A stretch of DNA of 64,000 nt from an uncultured Chloroflexia bacterium (lineage in GTDB: Bacteria > Chloroflexota > Chloroflexia > QHBQ01 > JADMIH01): the NCBI GenBank assembly GCA_963797095.1, contig CAWCNY010000005.1, positions 256,001-320,000 on the forward strand, given 5' to 3'. A model generated the notes under the pieces. It saw only the letters and a list, made by a program, of their open reading frames with translations, was not told where the DNA came from and searched no databases. Of the stretch, positions 543-57,293 are shown piece after piece; position 1 is the stretch's first letter, and every line of letters starts with the position of its first letter. A program made the translations under genes and the position numbers.

Positions 543-2157
543 TTGAGTTCTATCAATCTGGCTGTGGCCTGCGTGTGCGGGTGCGGGCTGGGACTCCTCC
601 TGCTGGGCCACTACCCGGCAGGGCTTGACCTCGCGCCTTGGATGGTGCTAATCCTGCTGGGCTTGTGCTCCCTGGGTTGCGCGTTCCTGGGCGCACTGAC
701 AGGCGAGTCACATGGGCGGCTCTGTTGGCCGCGTTCGCCCCCCTGGGGTGCGGTCGTGCCCTCGTAATCCACCCGCCCGCTACCTCTACCGACCTGGCTT
801 ACTACAACACTCCAATCAGTTCCACCGGCCCACCCATCCAGGTTGTAGGCGTCGTTACCGGCGAGCCACTGTTGGCCGACCGCTCACAAAGTCTGCGTAT
901 CAGCGCAGAAACGATCCGGCTAGGAGGCTCTACAAGCAGGCTGGTAGTCAAGGGTGATTTGCAGGCCGTCCTCCCGCGCTACCCTGAGTACTCGTTCGGC
1001 GAGCGGCTCGTCCTCGAAGGAATCCTTACAGGCCCGCCCACACTTGGCGACTTCGATTACGCGGCGTGGCTTGGCAGGCAGGGCATTTACAGCTACATGA
1101 GCTTCCCCCGCACTCGCAGTCTGGGGCGCTCAGGCGACGAAGGATTAGAAGCACTGGTTTCGGAGGCTAGAGAGGAGGCGCGCAATACCTTGCGGCGCAC
1201 GGTGGCCGAGCCGCAGGCCAGCGTCGCTATTGGCGTGGTTGTGGGCGACCACACCGCCCTTCCCGACGCCCTGAGCGACGACTTCCGCCGGACCGGCACT
1301 TTGCACATTCTCGCCATCTCCGGCCAGAGTATCTCCTTGCTGTCGGGCTCCTGTGGCTCATCAGGTCGGGCCGCCGGCGCAAGCGCGTCATGCCCCTATG
1401 GCTCGCCCTGATTACGGCGGTCGTGCTCGCGCTCCATACCGCCTTCACGGGAGCATCACCCCCTTAGTAAGGGCCGCGATTATGGGCGCTGTCGTCCTCT
1501 TTGCGCCCGTTGTTCGTCGCCGCTACGACCCACTTGCCGCCCTGGCGGTAGCGGCTGCGGCCATAATCCTGCTCGATCCCGATGTGCTGGCCGATGCGGG
1601 TTTCCAACTGTCATTCCTGTCTATGTGGGGCATAACCACTTTTGCCTCGCCCATAACCTCCCTGCTGGGGAAAATACGGCTGCCCGACCTCCTCTTCTAT
1701 CCGCTGGCGACCAGCCTCTCCGCTCAAACCGCCACCCTCCCTCTGAGCATACTCCTCTACGGGCAGGTATCTATCGTCTCGCCGATCGCCACCCTGGTCG
1801 CCGACACCACCCTCTCACCGCTCATGCTCTCCGGTATTGCCACGGTTTCTAGGCCTTCTGCCGTGGTTCGTCTTTTCGTGGCTGGGCGGCCTGCTCGTCT
1901 GGCTGTCAGCCGCCTGGCTCACCTGGTGGGTAGAATGGTGGGCGCAATTCCCCTGTGCGGCCATTCCGGTACAAGGCTTCCAACAACTATACGCCCTCGC
2001 CTATTACGCAGCCCTCTTCGCGGGTGCATGGCTCTTTTCCAGGGCAAAACGCAGAGAGCAACTAATCGCATTAGGGCCCCGCTGCAGAGTGGCTGCCCTG
2101 GGCGCCCTAGCCGCAGGTGTCTGGGTGGCGGCGGTGCTGCTTGTTGTAGCCCGGTAG
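543..2157 (+). pseudogene. comEC: ComEC/Rec2 competence protein (DUF4131 + competence domain) broken by about four frameshifts
   Basis: ComEC motifs lie in successive frames: 'GDFDYAAWL..QGI', 'F.RTGTLHILAISG', 'LVRAAIMG', 'DAGFQLSF'. Frame changes near 703, 1341, 1462 and 1847. TTG start at 543 with GGAG. Confidence 0.85.
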
Positions 2158-2311: not shown

Positions 2312-4786
2312 ATGGCATTGCACCGTAAGCATATTTTATGTCGTTTTGCGCTGGCTATCTCGCTCATAGTCATATCCTGCGCTTTCCTCAGCCACGCTCA
2401 AACAAACCCAACCTCAGTATATGCCGCGCCAGCCCCCCCGCAGGCATCCTCCCCATTCGGTGTGGCCGGCGTGATGCGCTGGCCCGTTTGGGGCACCTTC
2501 AACGAGCCTGCTGACCTTATGTTGCAAACAGGCGGCGCGTGGGTGCGCGACGACTTCGTATGGTCCTTGATCGAACCTAAGCCCGACCAATGGGATTGGA
2601 CCGCCACCGACAAGATCGTGGCCGAGTTGGGCGGGCGCAATCTCAATGTCCTGGGCCTGCTGGCCTATTCGGTAAGCTGGGCCACTTCCACCACCGACGA
2701 CAATTCCACAGCGCTCTCATTCTACCCACCCGATCCCGACAAATACTACACCTTCGTTCGCACCCTCGTACGCAGATACAAGAACGTGATCCACACCTGG
2801 GAAGTGTGGAACGAGCCCGACAACAACATATTCTGGAAGCCCTCGCCCAGTCCGCGCGACTACGCGGCCCTCCTCAAGGTCGCATACCGCGCCGTCAAGG
2901 ACGCCGACCCAACTGCCAGAGTCGCAACGGGTGGCGTATCGGGAAACGCTGTGCCCTTCCTCGAAGAAGTATTCGCAAGCGGCGCATCAAACTCGTTCGA
3001 CATCCTGGCGATCCACCCCTATGCCGTGCCCCTCGATCCCGCCCAGGGCCAGATACAAAGCCGCCCTGAAGTCCACAAGATACTCGATGTCGAGCTTGCC
3101 AAGTACCGCGCCCTCCTCAGCAGGCACTCACTGGACAAGCCTGTTTGGGTCACCGAGATCGGCTGGCCCGCGAACGGTTGGAACCTGAACCCCAACCTCC
3201 AGGCCGACTACCTGGCCCAGGCTTACGCGCTCATGCTCTCAAGCGGCCTCACCGAGCGTATCTTTGCATACAGCTTCAAGGACCAATCGGCAAACGGCGG
3301 CGACAGCTGGGGCATGGTCGCCTGGGGTGATGGCGCAACCGACCTGAGCCAGGTTCGACCATCTTTCGACGCCTACTCTACCAGCGCGAAACTCCTGACA
3401 GGCACCTCTCCCGGGGGCCGCATCCAATTATCGCCCGTCTCAGTCGCCGTCGATTTCGAATCGGGCGGCCAGTGGTCGCGCTCCATGCAGGGCGATGGCA
3501 CGCTCACCACTTCCACCGAACGCCAGCACAGCGGATCGGCCTCCGGCAAGCTGCAATACAACCTTACCGCCCAGAACCAGGCCGTGGACTTCGCGCCACC
3601 CCAGCCCGTGAACCTGCCGGGTCAGCCTACCCGCATCGGCGTCTGGGTGCTTGGCGATGGGTCGGGCAACTACCTCAGCGCGTGGCTGCGCGACCGCGAC
3701 GGCGAGCTTTTCAAGGTGCGCCTGGGGGCCGTAATGGGCGCGAACGACGGCTGGCGCTATTACGAATCCTCTATAGACAGCTATTACTTCGATTGGGAGC
3801 ACGCAGGCGGCAACCCCGCCAACGGCAAGCCCGACTACCCACTCCAATTCGTCAGCTTCAGGCTTGAGAACACCCCCGACGAACCTGCCGGTGGGGGCAC
3901 AATCTACCTGGATGATTTGCAGACCTGGGAGGGGCCTGATGTGACCGGCGTTCGTTTCAACAGGGGCGACGGCACCGTCGTTGATGTCGTATGGTCGGCC
4001 AACCCCACCCAGGCCCTTCTGCCCACCTCATCGGGAACCGCCCAGGTCTTTACTCGCGACGGAGCGGAATCGACCGTGACCGCAGGCAACGGCGCGATTC
4101 CACTCGATGTCAACGATAGCCCAATTTATGTGGTCCATAAACCTCCTATCAGCGCCCTGAAAACGACCGCTCCGGTGCTGCCAAACGGCGGGTACACTCA
4201 ATTGTGCGATGCCGCCCAACCTGCCGCCGACCTCAACGCCCCCGGCAACACTTTCTACTCCCAGACATGGCACAACCTCTCCGAACCGTTCAGGTCCTAC
4301 TGGCAGAGCCACGGAGGTGTGAACATCCTGGGCTACCCGATCACCGAGGTGTTTGAGGGCACACTGGACGATGGCAAGCCCTACAAGCTGCAATATTTCG
4401 AACGCGCCAGGATCGAATACCACCCTGAAAATCGCTCACCCGAAGATGTGCAATTGGGACTGTTAGGCGTGTGGGCTGCCGCTCACTCCGATGCGTCACA
4501 CGTGGCACAGGCGCAGGCCGCACCGGGGGGGCAGTTCTTCCCTGAAACGGGCCAGACTCTCAACATCTTCAGCGCCTGGTGGAACGCCAACGGCGGCCTC
4601 TCGACTTTCGGCTTCCCTATATCGCCTGAGACCAAAGAGCGCAACGCCGCCGACGGCAAAGACTACACAGTGCAGTACTTCGAGCGCAATCGCCTCGAAT
4701 ACCACCCCGAAAACGCGGGCACATCCCAGGAAGTGATGCTCGGACTCCTCGGTACCGAGTACGTGACCGCGCAGGGCTGCCGCTGA
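2312..4786 (+). CDS. Secreted clan GH-A glycoside hydrolase (GH39/GH5-like) with a carbohydrate-binding-like domain and two C-terminal Chloroflexi-type repeats
   Basis: Signal peptide; 'WEVWNEPD' (acid/base) and 'VWVTEIGW' (nucleophile); repeats 'GYPITE..QYFERARIEYHPEN' and 'GFPISPE..QYFERNRLEYHPEN'. Confidence 0.8.
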   Translation: MALHRKHILCRFALAISLIVISCAFLSHAQTNPTSVYAAPAPPQASSPFGVAGVMRWPVWGTFNEPADLMLQTGGAWVRDDFVWSLIEPKPDQWDWTATDKIVAELGGRNLNVLGLLAYSVSWATSTTDDNSTALSFYPPDPDKYYTFVRTLVRRYKNVIHTWEVWNEPDNNIFWKPSPSPRDYAALLKVAYRAVKDADPTARVATGGVSGNAVPFLEEVFASGASNSFDILAIHPYAVPLDPAQGQIQSRPEVHKILDVELAKYRALLSRHSLDKPVWVTEIGWPANGWNLNPNLQADYLAQAYALMLSSGLTERIFAYSFKDQSANGGDSWGMVAWGDGATDLSQVRPSFDAYSTSAKLLTGTSPGGRIQLSPVSVAVDFESGGQWSRSMQGDGTLTTSTERQHSGSASGKLQYNLTAQNQAVDFAPPQPVNLPGQPTRIGVWVLGDGSGNYLSAWLRDRDGELFKVRLGAVMGANDGWRYYESSIDSYYFDWEHAGGNPANGKPDYPLQFVSFRLENTPDEPAGGGTIYLDDLQTWEGPDVTGVRFNRGDGTVVDVVWSANPTQALLPTSSGTAQVFTRDGAESTVTAGNGAIPLDVNDSPIYVVHKPPISALKTTAPVLPNGGYTQLCDAAQPAADLNAPGNTFYSQTWHNLSEPFRSYWQSHGGVNILGYPITEVFEGTLDDGKPYKLQYFERARIEYHPENRSPEDVQLGLLGVWAAAHSDASHVAQAQAAPGGQFFPETGQTLNIFSAWWNANGGLSTFGFPISPETKERNAADGKDYTVQYFERNRLEYHPENAGTSQEVMLGLLGTEYVTAQGCR

Positions 4787-14088: not shown

Positions 14089-14193
14089 CTCTTATCAAGA
14101 GAGGTGGAGGGATACGGCCCTATGAAGCCCGGCAACCAGACCAACGGTGGTCCAGGTGCCAACTCCGACAGAGCGATCTGTAAGATGAGGGAG
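14089..14193 (+). ncRNA. SAM-I (S-box) riboswitch aptamer
   Basis: CTCTTATCAAGAG-AGGTGGAGGGA..GGCCC.ATGAAGCCCGGCAACC...GGTGCCAACTCC..CAG....CTG.AAGATGAG, upstream of methionine genes. Confidence 0.95.
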
Positions 14194-47615: not shown

Positions 47616-47748
47616 AGAGTATTATCCGTCAGCCCTTGACGTACTATTCCCCTACGATGCGCGGTCGCTGATTGCCGGTAAAACTGAAAAATCAAAAAAG
47701 AGGTTTGAGCATAGCCACATACAAGCTACTCAACCTCTCAGCAACATG

Positions 47749-47820
47749 AGCCGACGGGGGGATTCGAACCCTCGACCCGTCGCTTACGAAGCGACTGCTC
47801 TACCACTGAGCTACGTCGGC
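47749..47820 (-). tRNA. tRNA-Thr(CGT)
   Basis: Cloverleaf with GCCGACG acceptor stem, GTCGC-TT-CGT-AA-GCGAC anticodon arm and GGTTCGAATCC. CCA not encoded; one A.C mismatch in the T stem. Confidence 0.93.
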
Positions 47821-54297: not shown

Positions 54298-54396
54298 CAC
54301 AGTCTGATCATTGGGGAAAGCTGTCAAAGCGGCTGTCCATCTTAACCAAACAGGGACGCCTGCAAAACAAACGTCCCTTTATAGTATTCAGTTCTC

Positions 54397-54434
54397 TGGT
54401 CGGGGCGCCGCGATTCGAACGCGGGACCTCTTGA
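54397..54434 (-). tRNA. tRNA-Pro(GGG), 3' exon (positions 39-76)
   Basis: TCAAG-AGGTC-CCGCG-TTCGAAT-CGCGG-CGCCCCG-A-CCA. Confidence 0.92.
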
Positions 54435-56906
54435 GTAGGGTAAAAGACCAGCTCTTGGCTTTTGGACCAAGAAACCAACCTCTGCCCTCCGAACCGGACG
54501 TGCGACTTTCATCGCATCCGGCTCTCCAAGAATCTCACTCTTCCAACTGATTAGCGTTGGCGCAGGTCGTATAACAGGTCCGCAAGCTTGATACTGTCGT
54601 ATTCTCCCCTGTGGACTTTTCCGTGACACGACTGGCATACAGGAACTTGCTTTCTGTTGAGAGCACGCATGATGGCTTTGAAGCCAATTGCCGGTTTACC
54701 GTCTGCCTTTCTGATGTGGCGAACGTGGCGCATAACCACCCCATCCGTCTCACCGCAGATTACGCAGGGGTATCCCAGCTTTGAGCGCGTTCTCATCCTC
54801 GTCGCCATCTGTATCAGGTCTGTAGGTTGGTCGCCGTTTGCAAAGGCGTACCTATCTACTTTCCAGTCCCGGTTGACGTAGAACTTGACCGTGCGGTCCT
54901 TCCTCCCGTCCTGGGCTTTGATTACAAACGTAAGCTCTCGCCCATGTTTGCGGTAGATGGAGGCCGAGGTTGCTTTGAGTTTCATACTCAACGTCTTTGC
55001 ACAAGACATTGATAAGACGAATTGGATTCTCGTCAGGCTTCCAAAATTGTCGGTGAACCTGTAGTAACTCTGTATCCCACGATTGATACCGCTGTACAGA
55101 CTTACTATTTGGTCCACGTCCAGGTTTGTCCAGCCTGCTTTGGCCGTTGGTTCCCCTTCTTTGGTACAGAACCCCCTGTCTGCAAGTTTCTCAACAATTC
55201 TCGCTATCGGGGCTTTCATGACCGTCTCCCAGCCAGTGGAGCACCTTTTGAAGGGCTTTCCCCACCTGTTGGTAGTGGTCACGATTTTCGGCTCTCCACC
55301 GTCGCCGGGGCCGATTTGAAGGAGCGTTCCGAGAAATGTAGCTTCTTCTTTCCTGGCTTGGGTGATCCGGGTTTTCTCCTCGCTGAGCGTCAGTTTTAGT
55401 TCCTGACTAAGGAAGCATTTGAGTTCTTCCTTTATCTCCACCGCGAGTGAGTGCGGGCCTTGAATTCCAATTAGCCAGTCATCGGCGTATCGCAGGTATT
55501 TTATCCGGATGAAGTTCGGGTCCGCCGGGTCAATAGCTGGGGTGGTTCTGATTTGCCTGGATAGCGTTTTGAACTCTAGACTTTGTCTGTCGCCCCGTTT
55601 CCGTAGAGTATCCCTACGTTCGACAAGGCTCCGGTACTTGGCATTTCGGCGTTTCGTCTCGCCCCTTTCGTACCTCACTCTTAGCTGTTCAACTCTCTGG
55701 TCTAGTTGGTCTAAGTAGATATCGGCTAAGATTGGGCTTACTATTCCGCCTTGTGGCGTTCCCGCAAGACTGTCTTTGCGCTCGTCCCGCATATCCATGT
55801 ATCCGGCTTTCAGTAGCTTTCGAATTAGGTTGATAAACCGTTCGTCCGCTATCTTCGTGCGCAGGATACTTTCCAGAACTCCGTGGTCTATCTCATCGAA
55901 GCAGGCCCTGATGTCCCCTTCAATTATCCAGTTTACCGCCGACCACCTGGTACGGAACTCTCGCAGCGCCGTATGGCAGCTGCGATTTCGTCTAAACCCA
56001 TGACTTGACTGGTGGAAGTACGGCCCTTGTGAGCTGTCGTAGATAGCTTCCAAAATCATTCGCATGACTTCTTGGACTATCTTGTCTCGTACTGACGGTA
56101 TTCCGAGTCTCCGCATCTTGCCGTTGGCTTTCGGTATAAGTACCGTTCGCACAGGTTTGAATTGAAAGGTCTCGTCACGCATCTGCCGGATTATTCTCTG
56201 GATTTCGTCCATTGAAAATCCATCGAGCGTTTCGCCGTCCGTTCCTGGGGTCATGTTTCCGGGCTTAGACTTGACTCTCTCGTAGGCCAGTACGTACAAG
56301 TCTTCCCTGTACATGAACCTATAGAGGTCTTTGTTTTGCCAGTCCCTGGTGCTATTCAGTTGTTCAAGTGCCTTCACTCTCTGGAAGGCCTGTTCATTAC
56401 TCATCCGAGTAAGCCCTCCTTTCGATGAAGTTAGATTCTCTGTGGCCCTTTCCCGTGTCTCACCCATTACGGTGAGTTTTTGAGTACTATGGCCACTCCG
56501 TAACCCTGGCCCTCACGGGCTTTAGGTCATCCCGAAGTTGCTTAGAAGTCTCGGTTCGTACTTAGGTGCCCATTTCGTTAGTATCCCGCTCCCTGCGGTC
56601 GTCCCCGGTAAGAGCGTTCGCCAGAACTGGGGTTCACTTCCGGCGATACCGGGCTTAGGCATCAACGTCACTGCCTAAGAGTCCTTGATTGACTGACCTA
56701 ACTTGGGTTCGAGTAGTATAACCCTCACCATATACGACCTGGCTGACTGTCCATCTCGATGGTGACGTTCCATCTCAAACAGCCTTTTGGCATCATGCTG
56801 CTGTCCCCTCTCCCTTTCGGGTTCAGGTAAGATGCTGCTTTAGTCACTTTCGCTCTAGTGACACCACACCTCCTGTGGCAGAAACTTCTAAACCACATCG
56901 GCGCAC
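54435..56906 (-). mobile_element. Group IIA intron (2,472 nt) inside tRNA-Pro(GGG)
   Basis: 5' end GTGCG; domain V GAGAGCCGGATGCGATGAAAGTCGCACGTCCGGTTC; domain VI ending CCCTAC; EBS1 ACCCCA (56633-56628) and EBS2 TCAAG (56688-56684) match exon 1. Confidence 0.93.
54551..56404 (-). CDS. ltrA: Group II intron reverse transcriptase/maturase with C-terminal HNH-type domain (LtrA/mitochondrial-like lineage)
   Basis: 'KSKPGNMTPG.DGETLDG', 'RRLGIP', 'SHGFR', 'IEGDI..CFD', 'GTPQGG', 'RYADD', maturase X region, 'CVICG...RHVRH...NRKQVPVCQSCH'. ATG after AAAGGAGG. Confidence 0.95.
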   Translation of the reverse strand: MSNEQAFQRVKALEQLNSTRDWQNKDLYRFMYREDLYVLAYERVKSKPGNMTPGTDGETLDGFSMDEIQRIIRQMRDETFQFKPVRTVLIPKANGKMRRLGIPSVRDKIVQEVMRMILEAIYDSSQGPYFHQSSHGFRRNRSCHTALREFRTRWSAVNWIIEGDIRACFDEIDHGVLESILRTKIADERFINLIRKLLKAGYMDMRDERKDSLAGTPQGGIVSPILADIYLDQLDQRVEQLRVRYERGETKRRNAKYRSLVERRDTLRKRGDRQSLEFKTLSRQIRTTPAIDPADPNFIRIKYLRYADDWLIGIQGPHSLAVEIKEELKCFLSQELKLTLSEEKTRITQARKEEATFLGTLLQIGPGDGGEPKIVTTTNRWGKPFKRCSTGWETVMKAPIARIVEKLADRGFCTKEGEPTAKAGWTNLDVDQIVSLYSGINRGIQSYYRFTDNFGSLTRIQFVLSMSCAKTLSMKLKATSASIYRKHGRELTFVIKAQDGRKDRTVKFYVNRDWKVDRYAFANGDQPTDLIQMATRMRTRSKLGYPCVICGETDGVVMRHVRHIRKADGKPAIGFKAIMRALNRKQVPVCQSCHGKVHRGEYDSIKLADLLYDLRQR

Positions 56907-56945
56907 ACCCCATTCAAGTGCGCTACCGGGCTGCGCTACGCCCCG
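56907..56945 (-). tRNA. tRNA-Pro(GGG), 5' exon (positions 1-38)
   Basis: CGGGGCG-TA-GCGC-AGCCCGGTA-GCGC-A-CTTGA-AT-GGG-GT. Acceptor and anticodon stems pair perfectly with the 3' exon. Confidence 0.92.
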
Positions 56946-56977: not shown

Positions 56978-57006
56978 ATTATACCAGAACCGCCCCAACC
57001 CTGCAA
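56978..57006 (-). promoter_or_regulatory. Sigma70-type promoter of the intron-containing tRNA gene
   Basis: TTGCAG-17 nt-TATAAT with extended -10 TGn, about 32 nt upstream of the tRNA. Confidence 0.7.
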
Positions 57007-57293
57007 ACCACCCCGACCCAAACACCAGGGCGGACGCAAAGTCAGGCACGAACCCGCAATTATGGTCGCTGGAACCCTTTCCGAGAAAGTAGCTCTTGCC
57101 ATTGACGCCTAGCCGGACCTGGCAATATGCCGGTCACGGTTGCCCAACCAGCTAACTTCGCATTGACGCCTGACTTTGCATCCGCCCTGGACCCAAAACA
57201 AAAGAGGCACCCCAAACAAAGAGTGCCCCATGACTACCAACAAGCAACCAGGAACTTGGAACTTGGAACCCCAATCCGACTACCGACTACCAA

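Follow-up and report, generated by a model that had tools for sequence, protein, structure and literature searches.

A probable mobile group II intron in a tRNA-Pro(GGG) gene of a Chloroflexia bacterium with exon-binding sites matched to the anticodon arm

The window, a 64,000-nucleotide stretch of a contig from an uncultured Chloroflexia bacterium, contains a tRNA-Pro(GGG) gene that is split by a group II intron (Table 1). ARAGORN recognises the joined exons as a 77-nt tRNA-Pro(GGG), which places the intron between tRNA nt 38 and 39, IBS1 at nt 33-38 and IBS2 at nt 27-31. The ends of the intron follow the group II boundary rule (5' GUGYG, 3' AY), with GTGCG at 56906 and CCCTAC ending at 54435. 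Moreover, domains V and VI match RF00029 over model positions 1-77 of 77 with 67.3 bits, where the gathering score is 40. The sequence upstream of the split gene also precedes the uninterrupted gene in the relative G017. With its promoter, exon 1, intron, exon 2 and terminator, the split tRNA gene is predicted to be a stand-alone unit. It is the sole GGG proline tRNA gene in this assembly of eight contigs (93% complete), which also holds tRNA-Pro(UGG) and tRNA-Pro(CGG), with two genes for each. The intron is present in the genome in one copy.

Table 1. Positions of the intron, its host tRNA gene and the predicted exon-binding elements in the window
Feature	Position	Strand	Remarks
Group II intron, 2472 nt, GTGCG...CCCTAC	54435..56906	-	Ends coincide with the junction of the two exons in intronless alleles
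tRNA-Pro(GGG) exon 1, tRNA nt 1-38	56907..56945	-	Same as exon 1 of the uninterrupted genes of relatives
tRNA-Pro(GGG) exon 2, nt 39-76, CCA encoded; delta' TCA at 54434-54432	54397..54434	-	
Sigma-70-like promoter of the split tRNA gene: TTTGCA, 18-nt spacer, TG-extended TATAAT	56978..57007	-	10/12 matches
Terminator-like hairpin and T run, 19 nt past the tRNA 3' end	54352..54378	-	
Intron domains V and VI	54435..54526	-	Rfam RF00029
Intron-encoded protein, 617 aa: reverse transcriptase, maturase (domain X), HNH endonuclease	54551..56404	-	
IBS1 TGGGGT, anticodon-loop nt 33-38 (U33, anticodon GGG, G37, U38), exon positions -6 to -1	56907..56912	-	
IBS2 CTTGA, anticodon stem 5' strand, nt 27-31, exon positions -12 to -8	56914..56918	-	
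EBS2 hairpin GTC-AATCAAG-GAC; EBS2 TCAAG at 56688-56684	56681..56693	-	Consensus fold (columns 245-261); 5/5 with IBS2
EBS1 hairpin: arms TCGCCGGAA (56646-56638) and TTCTGGCGA (56626-56618), loop GTGAACCCCAG (56637-56627); delta TGA at 56636-56634, EBS1 ACCCCA at 56633-56628	56618..56646	-	Consensus fold (columns 292-341)

The intron-encoded protein matches the profiles RVT_1 (99.3 bits), Intron_maturas2 (99.8 bits) and AI2M-like_HNH (24.2 bits, cutoff 23), and its reverse transcriptase active site, YADD, is intact. A reverse transcriptase, a domain X of the Intron_maturas2 type and an HNH domain, together with a delta sequence directly 5' of EBS1, are the features of a IIA intron, and by its domains the protein is classed as mitochondrial-like (IIA). 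Where all 12 aligned relatives have MHH in the HNH motif, the window has MRHV; L040 has MHHV. Only the window's copy carries Arg in place of the first His of "HH", and endonuclease-dependent mobility of this copy may therefore be impaired.

How might the intron recognise its site? A preliminary description of this DNA had proposed that two short motifs of the intron pair with the anticodon arm, and both pairings hold. Without a mismatch, EBS1 complements the six bases at the end of exon 1 (6/6) and EBS2 complements positions -12 to -8 (5/5). The 6/6 pairing with nt 33-38 sets a CCC triplet opposite the anticodon GGG, in keeping with the proposal that EBS1 reads the anticodon like a codon. EBS2 was also said to have the same sequence as the anticodon stem's 3' strand, which is true but a logical consequence of IBS2 forming the 5' strand of that stem. 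The proposed pairing of delta TGA with exon-2 TCA stands in part: all three bases pair in the window, but delta-delta' probably comprises 2 bp rather than 3. The third pair may be incidental, since all three bases are paired in only one of 34 relatives, the window itself. Of two ACCCCA motifs within the first 800 bases of the intron, only the one at intron position 274 has a matching delta and an upstream EBS2.

The preliminary description regarded the tRNA gene as a genuine homing target, and empty alleles that retain the target support this view. In 27 of 40 related genomes the two exons adjoin directly; G015 also carries an intact gene, which brings the uninterrupted gene to at least 28 of the 40. 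Among 19 fetched loci of relatives, for which only the presence of the uninterrupted 15-nt target (-12 to +3) was counted, 18 have a perfect copy. The tRNA-Pro(GGG) site is filled in the window and in L040, L041 and L042, whose proteins are 94%, 89% and 71% identical to that of the window, respectively. The 3' exon of L040 is the same as the window's. Had close relatives with the same EBS1 been inserted mainly at non-tRNA sites, the case for homing would have suffered; L041 and L042, the only other loci that combine this EBS1 with a readable 5' exon, both lie in tRNA-Pro(GGG). Such introns are rarely found in the genomes sampled. Of the 401 genomes in the phylum sample, 14 (G000 included) had a match to the window protein at E<=1e-100, with no match above 61% identity, and the Massilia intron protein was matched in one of 401 genomes of its order, which is its own genome.

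The intron's relatives are not confined to proline tRNA genes. We found 14 related loci in nine tRNA species (Pro-GGG, Gly-CCC, CAU, Lys-CUU, Arg-CCU, Ser-UGA, Val-GAC, Leu-UAA and Leu-UAG), every one at tRNA nt 38/39. Retargeting to other tRNAs, which had been put forward as something relatives could achieve by changing EBS1, is thus borne out by the eight occupied tRNA species other than Pro-GGG, in which EBS1, and mostly EBS2 too, is altered to match. EBS1 in the equivalent loop pairs at 6/6 in all 12 of the tRNA-inserted loci with a known 5' exon. The contigs of L043 and L028 end inside or at the intron and do not cover its flanks. In the wider subfamily of about 80 loci, most members sit at non-tRNA sites and have different EBS sequences.

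Some relatives also carry a spare tRNA. An intact tRNA with the same anticodon lies inside the intron in nine relatives, occupying at least three different places, and is absent from the window's intron. In the cultured hosts Massilia sp., Cupriavidus lacunae and Pseudomonas silesiensis, the spare and the host tRNA can be told apart by their anticodon stems. In L123 the host tRNA exons have decayed, which indicates that loss of the split gene does occur in this family.

Metatranscriptomes of soil or rhizosphere, 20 runs belonging to 11 studies, contain words of the intron sequence, although RNA libraries may also contain DNA. Contigs that are 90-100% alike (mostly >=95%) span most of the intron in four runs of four studies. 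Two contigs cross exon-intron junctions in unspliced form and so represent precursor RNA or DNA. Evidence of splicing was not found in the contigs of the public RNA runs compared with the locus. A lone exon-exon joint (54429 to 56907, with three letters between) was rejected as a splicing product; it probably comes from the tRNA of another organism, because its shorter side is 25 letters, its depth is 2 and two nucleotides of the expected junction are missing.

We propose, with a probability of roughly 85%, that the window holds a mobile mitochondrial-like (IIA-type) group II intron that lies in a single tRNA-Pro(GGG) gene at nt 38/39 and recognises the anticodon arm. The mechanism is built on the IIA scheme, from which we infer both the splicing and the present mobility of the window's copy. 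In the precursor, EBS2 would pair with nt 27-31, the 5' side of the anticodon stem, and so open that stem, EBS1 would pair with nt 33-38 so that the anticodon is held by the CCC triplet, and the bases 5' of EBS1 would pair with nt 39-40, thereby aligning both splice sites. Splicing aided by the protein would then free an intact tRNA, and the anticodon stem would re-form. The excised intron-protein particle could reuse the same pairings on DNA, reverse-splicing into intronless tRNA-Pro(GGG) genes, and the inserted intron would be copied by its own reverse transcriptase.

Could the intron instead be an immobile or non-splicing relic? If so, tRNA-Pro(GGG) would be knocked out, the UGG and CGG proline tRNAs would cover decoding and the match between EBS and IBS would be the record of a past insertion. 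The single copy in this genome, the MRHV reading of the HNH motif in place of MHH and the lack of a splicing signal in public RNA contigs are all in line with a relic, as are the duplicate genes for both alternative proline tRNAs and the decayed host exons of L123. However, the reading frame is open across 617 aa and retains YADD, domains V and VI score well over threshold, and all 14 EBS/delta pairs of the window's intron are intact. Moreover, the exons are the same as those of the relatives' functional genes, the promoter and terminator are intact, and intron sequence recurs in the metatranscriptomes of the 11 studies. Taken together, this makes a relic unlikely.

The mobile, anticodon-reading intron that we favor also depends on the exon-binding sites having been placed correctly within domain I. 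A consensus fold of domain I built from 17 sequences contains 107 predicted pairs, 90 of which show compensatory changes. In this fold a 3-bp hairpin presents EBS2 in its terminal loop, and the long arm that follows presents EBS1 in the same way. When related introns were aligned, the loops covaried with their own exons far above the level of non-cognate pairs. Across 53 distinct target sites, EBS1 pairs at 6/6 in 24 of 53 cognate combinations versus 31 of 2706 non-cognate ones, and at 5/6 or better in 38 of 53 versus 180 of 2706; EBS2 pairs at 5/5 in 20 of 53 versus 42 of 2724. A clean EBS2 was not found in L029 or L030. In L042 the homologous EBS2 loop pairs only four bases, one of them a wobble, and an exact TCAGG sits in a helix strand.

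The same alignment bears on how the 3' exon is read. A separate EBS3 elsewhere in domain I could serve this purpose in the manner of IIB or IIC introns, which would make the TGA beside EBS1 irrelevant, and the observation that only +1 and +2 covary, with the third pair confined to one of 34 relatives, is compatible with such an arrangement. However, in 26 of 34 relatives, whose exons differ, positions +1 and +2 are paired with the two bases directly 5' of EBS1, which is the IIA arrangement, and the protein is of the mitochondrial-like type; we regard an EBS3 as very improbable. Finally, the idea that the complementarities arose by chance and that the real exon-binding sites lie elsewhere in domain I has next to nothing left to recommend it: motifs of 5-6 nt do recur randomly, as the second ACCCCA illustrates, but chance is already contradicted, on alignment evidence, by the covariation of the same columns with exons over the 53 target sites, by the terminal-loop position of both motifs in a fold with 90 of 107 pairs compensated and by the 6/6 match in 12 of 12 tRNA-inserted relatives.

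Ll.LtrB of Lactococcus lactis, a IIA intron in a relaxase gene with the protein LtrA, is the basis of "targetrons". Its target consists of IBS2 at -12 to -8, a one-base gap, IBS1 at -6 to -1 and delta' from +1, and alterations to EBS1, EBS2 and delta direct it to new sites. Going by the description of Ll.LtrB, the window's intron is similar in having a protein with reverse transcriptase, maturase and HNH domains and in the geometry of its target. Unlike Ll.LtrB, it targets the anticodon arm of a tRNA, so that IBS2 and delta' come from opposite strands of a single helix, with tRNA nt 32 as the base left between IBS2 and IBS1. Moreover, its natural relatives form a retargeting series over nine tRNAs, which sets them apart from Ll.LtrB.

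Plastid group II introns in tRNA genes may likewise be located at tRNA 38/39; one plastome table gives exon lengths of 36/37 for trnK and 37/36 for trnA, which are mutually inconsistent. The Pfam profile MatK_N matches 36 of 44 subfamily proteins at E<=0.001, versus 0 of 18 other mitochondrial-like intron proteins. The window protein itself scores 25.4 bits, under the Pfam cutoff of 31.4, and the relatives L121 (42.1), L122 (33.7) and L024 (33.5) pass it. Plastid trnK(UUU), which carries matK, and trnA, trnI and trnV are described as containing IIA introns near the anticodon (PMC7068846, PMC7863635), and MatK is described as having lost reverse transcriptase motifs and mobility (PMC4424553). 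The protein of the window's intron, in contrast, is complete. An organellar group II intron with a maturase is described from a tRNA(CAU) gene (PMC13578239, citing Janouskovec 2013); judging by that description, L029 and L030 are alike in that they also sit in a tRNA(CAU) gene.

Bacterial anticodon loops are also interrupted by group I introns, as in tRNA-Leu UAA, tRNA-fMet and Azoarcus tRNA-Ile. Such introns are described as self-splicing and as occupying conserved sites in the anticodon region (PMC3984707). They differ from the window's intron in ribozyme class and mobility mechanism, with neither a reverse transcriptase nor an EBS/IBS code. The window's family can also be set beside integrative elements, which differ in moving by DNA recombination and are alike in using a tRNA gene as a conserved landing site while preserving the supply of tRNA. 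When integrative elements land in a tRNA gene, they bring along sequence that replaces the displaced 3' end of the tRNA. The spare tRNAs of the intron's relatives are analogous, except that a complete second tRNA gene is held within the intron.

What does this intron tell us about tRNA genes as homes for group II introns? Group II introns in tRNA genes are a textbook feature of plastids. Full-text literature searches found no published bacterial counterparts. One intron scaffold has been set into nine tRNAs at the same nucleotide with two short loops changed, which amounts to a natural targetron-like series. The MatK_N signal, which consists of profile matches, makes this bacterial family a concrete candidate lineage in the ancestry of the tRNA introns of plastids. 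We tentatively suggest, as a possibility that we would put at somewhat less than even odds, that the family is a bacterial IIA lineage that ancestrally homed to tRNA nt 38/39 and switches tRNA through changes to EBS2 and to a codon-like EBS1 (5'-N N codon A-3'). Such a lineage would repeatedly gain a spare tRNA with the same anticodon, compensating the host until the split gene can decay, as in L123, and it may be a free-living sister or source of plastid trnK-matK and other organellar tRNA group II introns. The locus makes several aspects of this biology testable: the competition of exon-binding pairing with the anticodon helix during splicing, whether the architecture common to tRNAs lets the protein tolerate target switching, and whether the spare tRNAs borne by introns serve to compensate the host.

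On its minus strand, the window carries a stand-alone tRNA transcription unit that is interrupted by a group II intron. When its two exons are joined, ARAGORN reads a 77-nt tRNA-Pro(GGG). When long introns are permitted, it recovers the gene in split form (54397-56945; intron of 2472 nt), but names the tRNA wrongly because it assigns the canonical insertion position. The Rfam group II domain V/VI model matches the last 92 nt of the intron (67.3 bits, gathering score 40). The joined exons and intron bounds therefore place the insertion between tRNA nucleotides 38 and 39, where the anticodon loop meets the 3' strand of its stem. We found the intron in single copy in its own genome (assembly 93% complete), where tRNA-Pro(GGG) is absent elsewhere and the other proline tRNA genes are two tRNA-Pro(UGG) and two tRNA-Pro(CGG). 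A distinct group II intron protein, sharing 40% identity with that of the window, is encoded twice in this genome (C2:823445-825172 and C3:570214-571941), which also has a further domain V match at C4:422480-422541. Elsewhere, the window holds a SAM riboswitch (S box; 14089-14191, plus strand, 80.7 bits) and a tRNA-Thr(CGU) gene (47748-47820, minus strand).

The preliminary description proposed that the intron's exon-binding sites (EBS) are tailored to the anticodon arm, and every element it listed was found in place. The hairpin TCGCCGGAA/TTCTGGCGA at 56646-56618 presents the loop GTGAACCCCAG. Within this loop, ACCCCA (EBS1, 56633-56628) is perfectly complementary to tRNA nucleotides 33-38, TGGGGT (56912-56907), and TGA (56636-56634) complements the exon 2 bases TCA (54434-54432). 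TCAAG (EBS2, 56688-56684) is complementary to CTTGA (56918-56914), nucleotides 27-31; the unpaired base -7 is nucleotide 32. Folding domain I as a consensus of 17 diverse relatives yields 107 pairs, of which 90 show compensatory changes. In this structure, EBS2 forms the end loop of a hairpin with a 3-bp stem (columns 245-261), and EBS1 forms that of the long arm after it (columns 292-341). We then compared the aligned EBS loops of 68 loci with a readable 5' exon, representing 53 distinct target sites, with their own and each other's exons, leaving G-U pairs uncounted. EBS1 paired 6/6 in 24/53 cognate versus 31/2706 non-cognate combinations, and at 5/6 or better in 38/53 versus 180/2706. For EBS2, pairing was 5/5 in 20/53 versus 42/2724, and at least 4/5 in 43/53 versus 570/2724. 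The two bases adjoining EBS1 pair with exon positions +1 and +2 in 26 of 34 loci. This cognate excess, together with the delta pairing, indicates that these are real exon-binding sites of the IIA kind. The IIA-style delta-delta' interaction thus stands, but its proposed three pairs, present in 1/34 loci, are probably two.

Is the tRNA gene a genuine homing target, as had been suggested? Empty and occupied alleles both support this view. Among 40 relatives drawn, 24 of them from the same genus, the exon 1 and exon 2 matches directly adjoin in 27, and G015, another relative, also has an intact tRNA-Pro(GGG). The 15-nt target (-12 to +3) is uninterrupted in 18 of 19 fetched loci. With three unpublished genomes (G016, G021, and G022) left out, exons are contiguous in 24 of 37 genomes (25 with G015) and the target in 16 of 17 loci. 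In one relative, G017, the uninterrupted gene has the same upstream promoter region as the window's. Three metagenome contigs, L040, L041, and L042, have the site filled; their intron proteins share 94%, 89%, and 71% identity, respectively, with that of the window. The host tRNA-Pro(GGG) of L042 differs in its D loop and anticodon stem, and therefore the association of intron and tRNA predates a single insertion. Beside its normal gene, the relative G010 carries another tRNA-like sequence (L014, about 930-1010, plus strand), which is divergent but shares the tRNA-Pro(GGG) anticodon arm.

Related introns were collected from reference genomes, metagenome contigs (the best 80 of 533 confirmed), a phylum sample, the genomes of three loci, and plasmids. 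Most are found outside tRNA genes, for instance in repeat-protein genes or nested within domain IV of other introns. Many soil metagenome copies (L048, L049, L051, L052, L062, L073, L076, L085, L099, and others) have a 5' flank ending in ATAGTA and appear to be nested, as their insertion site looks like domain IV of another copy of a related intron; the window intron's counterpart of this flank is CCATAGTAC near 56488. Contig L031, assigned to a Flavobacteriaceae genome, has a gene that we take to be petD-like, split by an ORF-bearing group II intron and adjoined by a tRNA-Ser gene; this contig resembles plastid DNA that ended up in a bacterial bin.

The 14 tRNA-inserted introns all lie between nucleotides 38 and 39. 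In all 12 with a known 5' exon, the equivalent loop (intron position 265-299, or farther downstream where domain I has an insert) contains the exact complement of nucleotides 33-38, and thus each EBS1 reads 5'-N N, cognate codon, A-3'. There are nine forms: ACCCCA, TTGGGA, TTATGA, TTAAGA, TTAGGA, TTTCAA, ATGTCA, TTTTAA, and ACCTAA. The prediction that relatives could retarget to other tRNAs by changing EBS1 is therefore borne out across nine tRNA species. Among loci other than L029 and L030, the homologous-loop EBS2 pairs 5/5 in the window, L041, L023, L112, L143, L122, and L152, 4/5 in L121, and more weakly in L042. On the 1.17-Mb Pseudomonas silesiensis plasmid pPL1 (563613-569039), the intron-bearing gene of L152 belongs to an array of eight or more tRNA genes.

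Features of the split tRNA-Pro(GGG) unit, and tRNA-inserted relatives with their spare tRNA genes
Feature	Locus	Coordinates	Strand	Details
Sigma-70-like promoter	window	57007-56978	minus	first element of unit; TTTGCA, 18 nt, TG-extended TATAAT
tRNA-Pro(GGG) exon 1	window	56945-56907	minus	
Group II intron	window	56906-54435	minus	starts GTGCG, ends CCCTAC; no spare seen
Intron ORF, 617 aa	window	56404-54551	minus	RVT_1, Intron_maturas2, AI2M-like HNH domain; weak MatK_N
tRNA-Pro(GGG) exon 2	window	54434-54397	minus	CCA encoded
Hairpin and T run	window	54378-54352	minus	last element of unit
Intron in Pro-GGG	L040, L041, L042			no spare seen; incomplete contigs
Spare, Gly-CCC	L023	2361-2435		exon 1 of split host gene on second contig of G015
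Spare, CAU	L029	2838-2914		Massilia
Spare, CAU	L030	2820-2896		Cupriavidus
Intron in Lys-CUU	L112			no spare
Spare, Arg-CCU	L121	3437-3510	minus	
Spare, Ser-UGA	L143	3508-3595	minus	second intron in same Massilia as L029
Spare, Val-GAC	L122	782-856		
Spare, Val-GAC	L123	779-852		
Spare, Leu-UAA	L151	1609-1693		Pseudomonas plasmid
Spare, Leu-UAG	L152	3683-3766		P. silesiensis plasmid

In protein trees from quick searches, with SH-aLRT support only, the window intron forms one clade with L040, L041, L042, L043, and L023 (support 99-100). The other tRNA-inserted lineages are successive early branches of a well-supported subfamily (backbone supports 58-94), and non-tRNA clades are nested in its crown; the starred branches force at least three label changes. 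This arrangement suggests, short of proof, that tRNA-gene homing is the older habit.

Why carry a second copy of the interrupted gene? Nine of the 14 introns contain a complete tRNA gene with the host's anticodon, three of which score 64-72 bits with the Rfam tRNA model. The spare lies upstream of the ORF in domain IV in L029, L030, L121, L143, and L151, downstream of the ORF in L023 and L152, and within the loop of a domain I hairpin, with a terminator-like hairpin behind it, in L122 and L123. These three different places suggest that spares were acquired several times. Seven spares were examined: nucleotides 33-38 are the same as in the host but the anticodon stem differs, and EBS2 pairing falls from 4-5 Watson-Crick pairs with the host to 1-3 with the spare, a drop from which the spare should be expected to be a poorer homing target. 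The host tRNA-Val exons of L123 (about 670-710 and 3513-3550) no longer show D-arm and T-arm features, while its intron-borne tRNA-Val(GAC) remains intact; here the split gene seems to have been superseded by the spare. The window intron and L112, both complete, have no spare. We infer that the spares are best read as host compensation.

Judged by its sequence, the intron protein is of the mitochondrial-like type that accompanies IIA introns; its NCBIfam group II reverse transcriptase/maturase match (263 bits) is under the model cutoff of 300. Its HNH motif (54704-54718, minus strand) reads MRHV, where 12/12 aligned relatives, including the 94%-identical L040, have MHH; the first His is thus replaced by Arg solely in the window's copy. 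RNA libraries contain the intron. Sequence words sampled from it turn up in 20 metatranscriptome runs on soil or rhizosphere, from 11 studies (shares 0.21-0.59). Most of the intron is covered by contigs from four of these studies (four runs), with 90-100% likeness, mostly at least 95%. Two contigs cross the exon-intron junctions unspliced. These data show presence only, not splicing, and DNA carry-over is possible.

Altogether, the observation in the preliminary description is confirmed and its interpretation supported. The element appears to be an ordinary IIA intron in mechanism, which we take to be that of introns such as Ll.LtrB. The plastid trnK (matK), trnA, trnI, and trnV introns are also of type IIA and interrupt their tRNA genes close to the anticodon (PMC7068846; PMC7863635), and a trnMe intron from a florideophyte plastid codes for a maturase (PMC13578239). 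The Pfam model MatK_N is matched at E<=0.001 by 36/44 subfamily proteins (best 1.2e-10) but by 0/18 other mitochondrial-like intron proteins in the same searches. Three relatives pass the Pfam cutoff, whereas the window's protein is under it (25.4 vs 31.4 bits). In full-text searches of literature outside subscription journals, we found no report of a bacterial group II intron in a tRNA gene or of an intron-borne tRNA of the spare kind. Neither appears by term in a group II review (PMC4424553), a group II genome survey (PMC8919778), or two tRNA-gene reviews (PMC4033280 and PMC4390854). The niche of this intron is thus unreported as far as we found, and its lineage offers a clear natural retargeting series, with striking cargo in the relatives.
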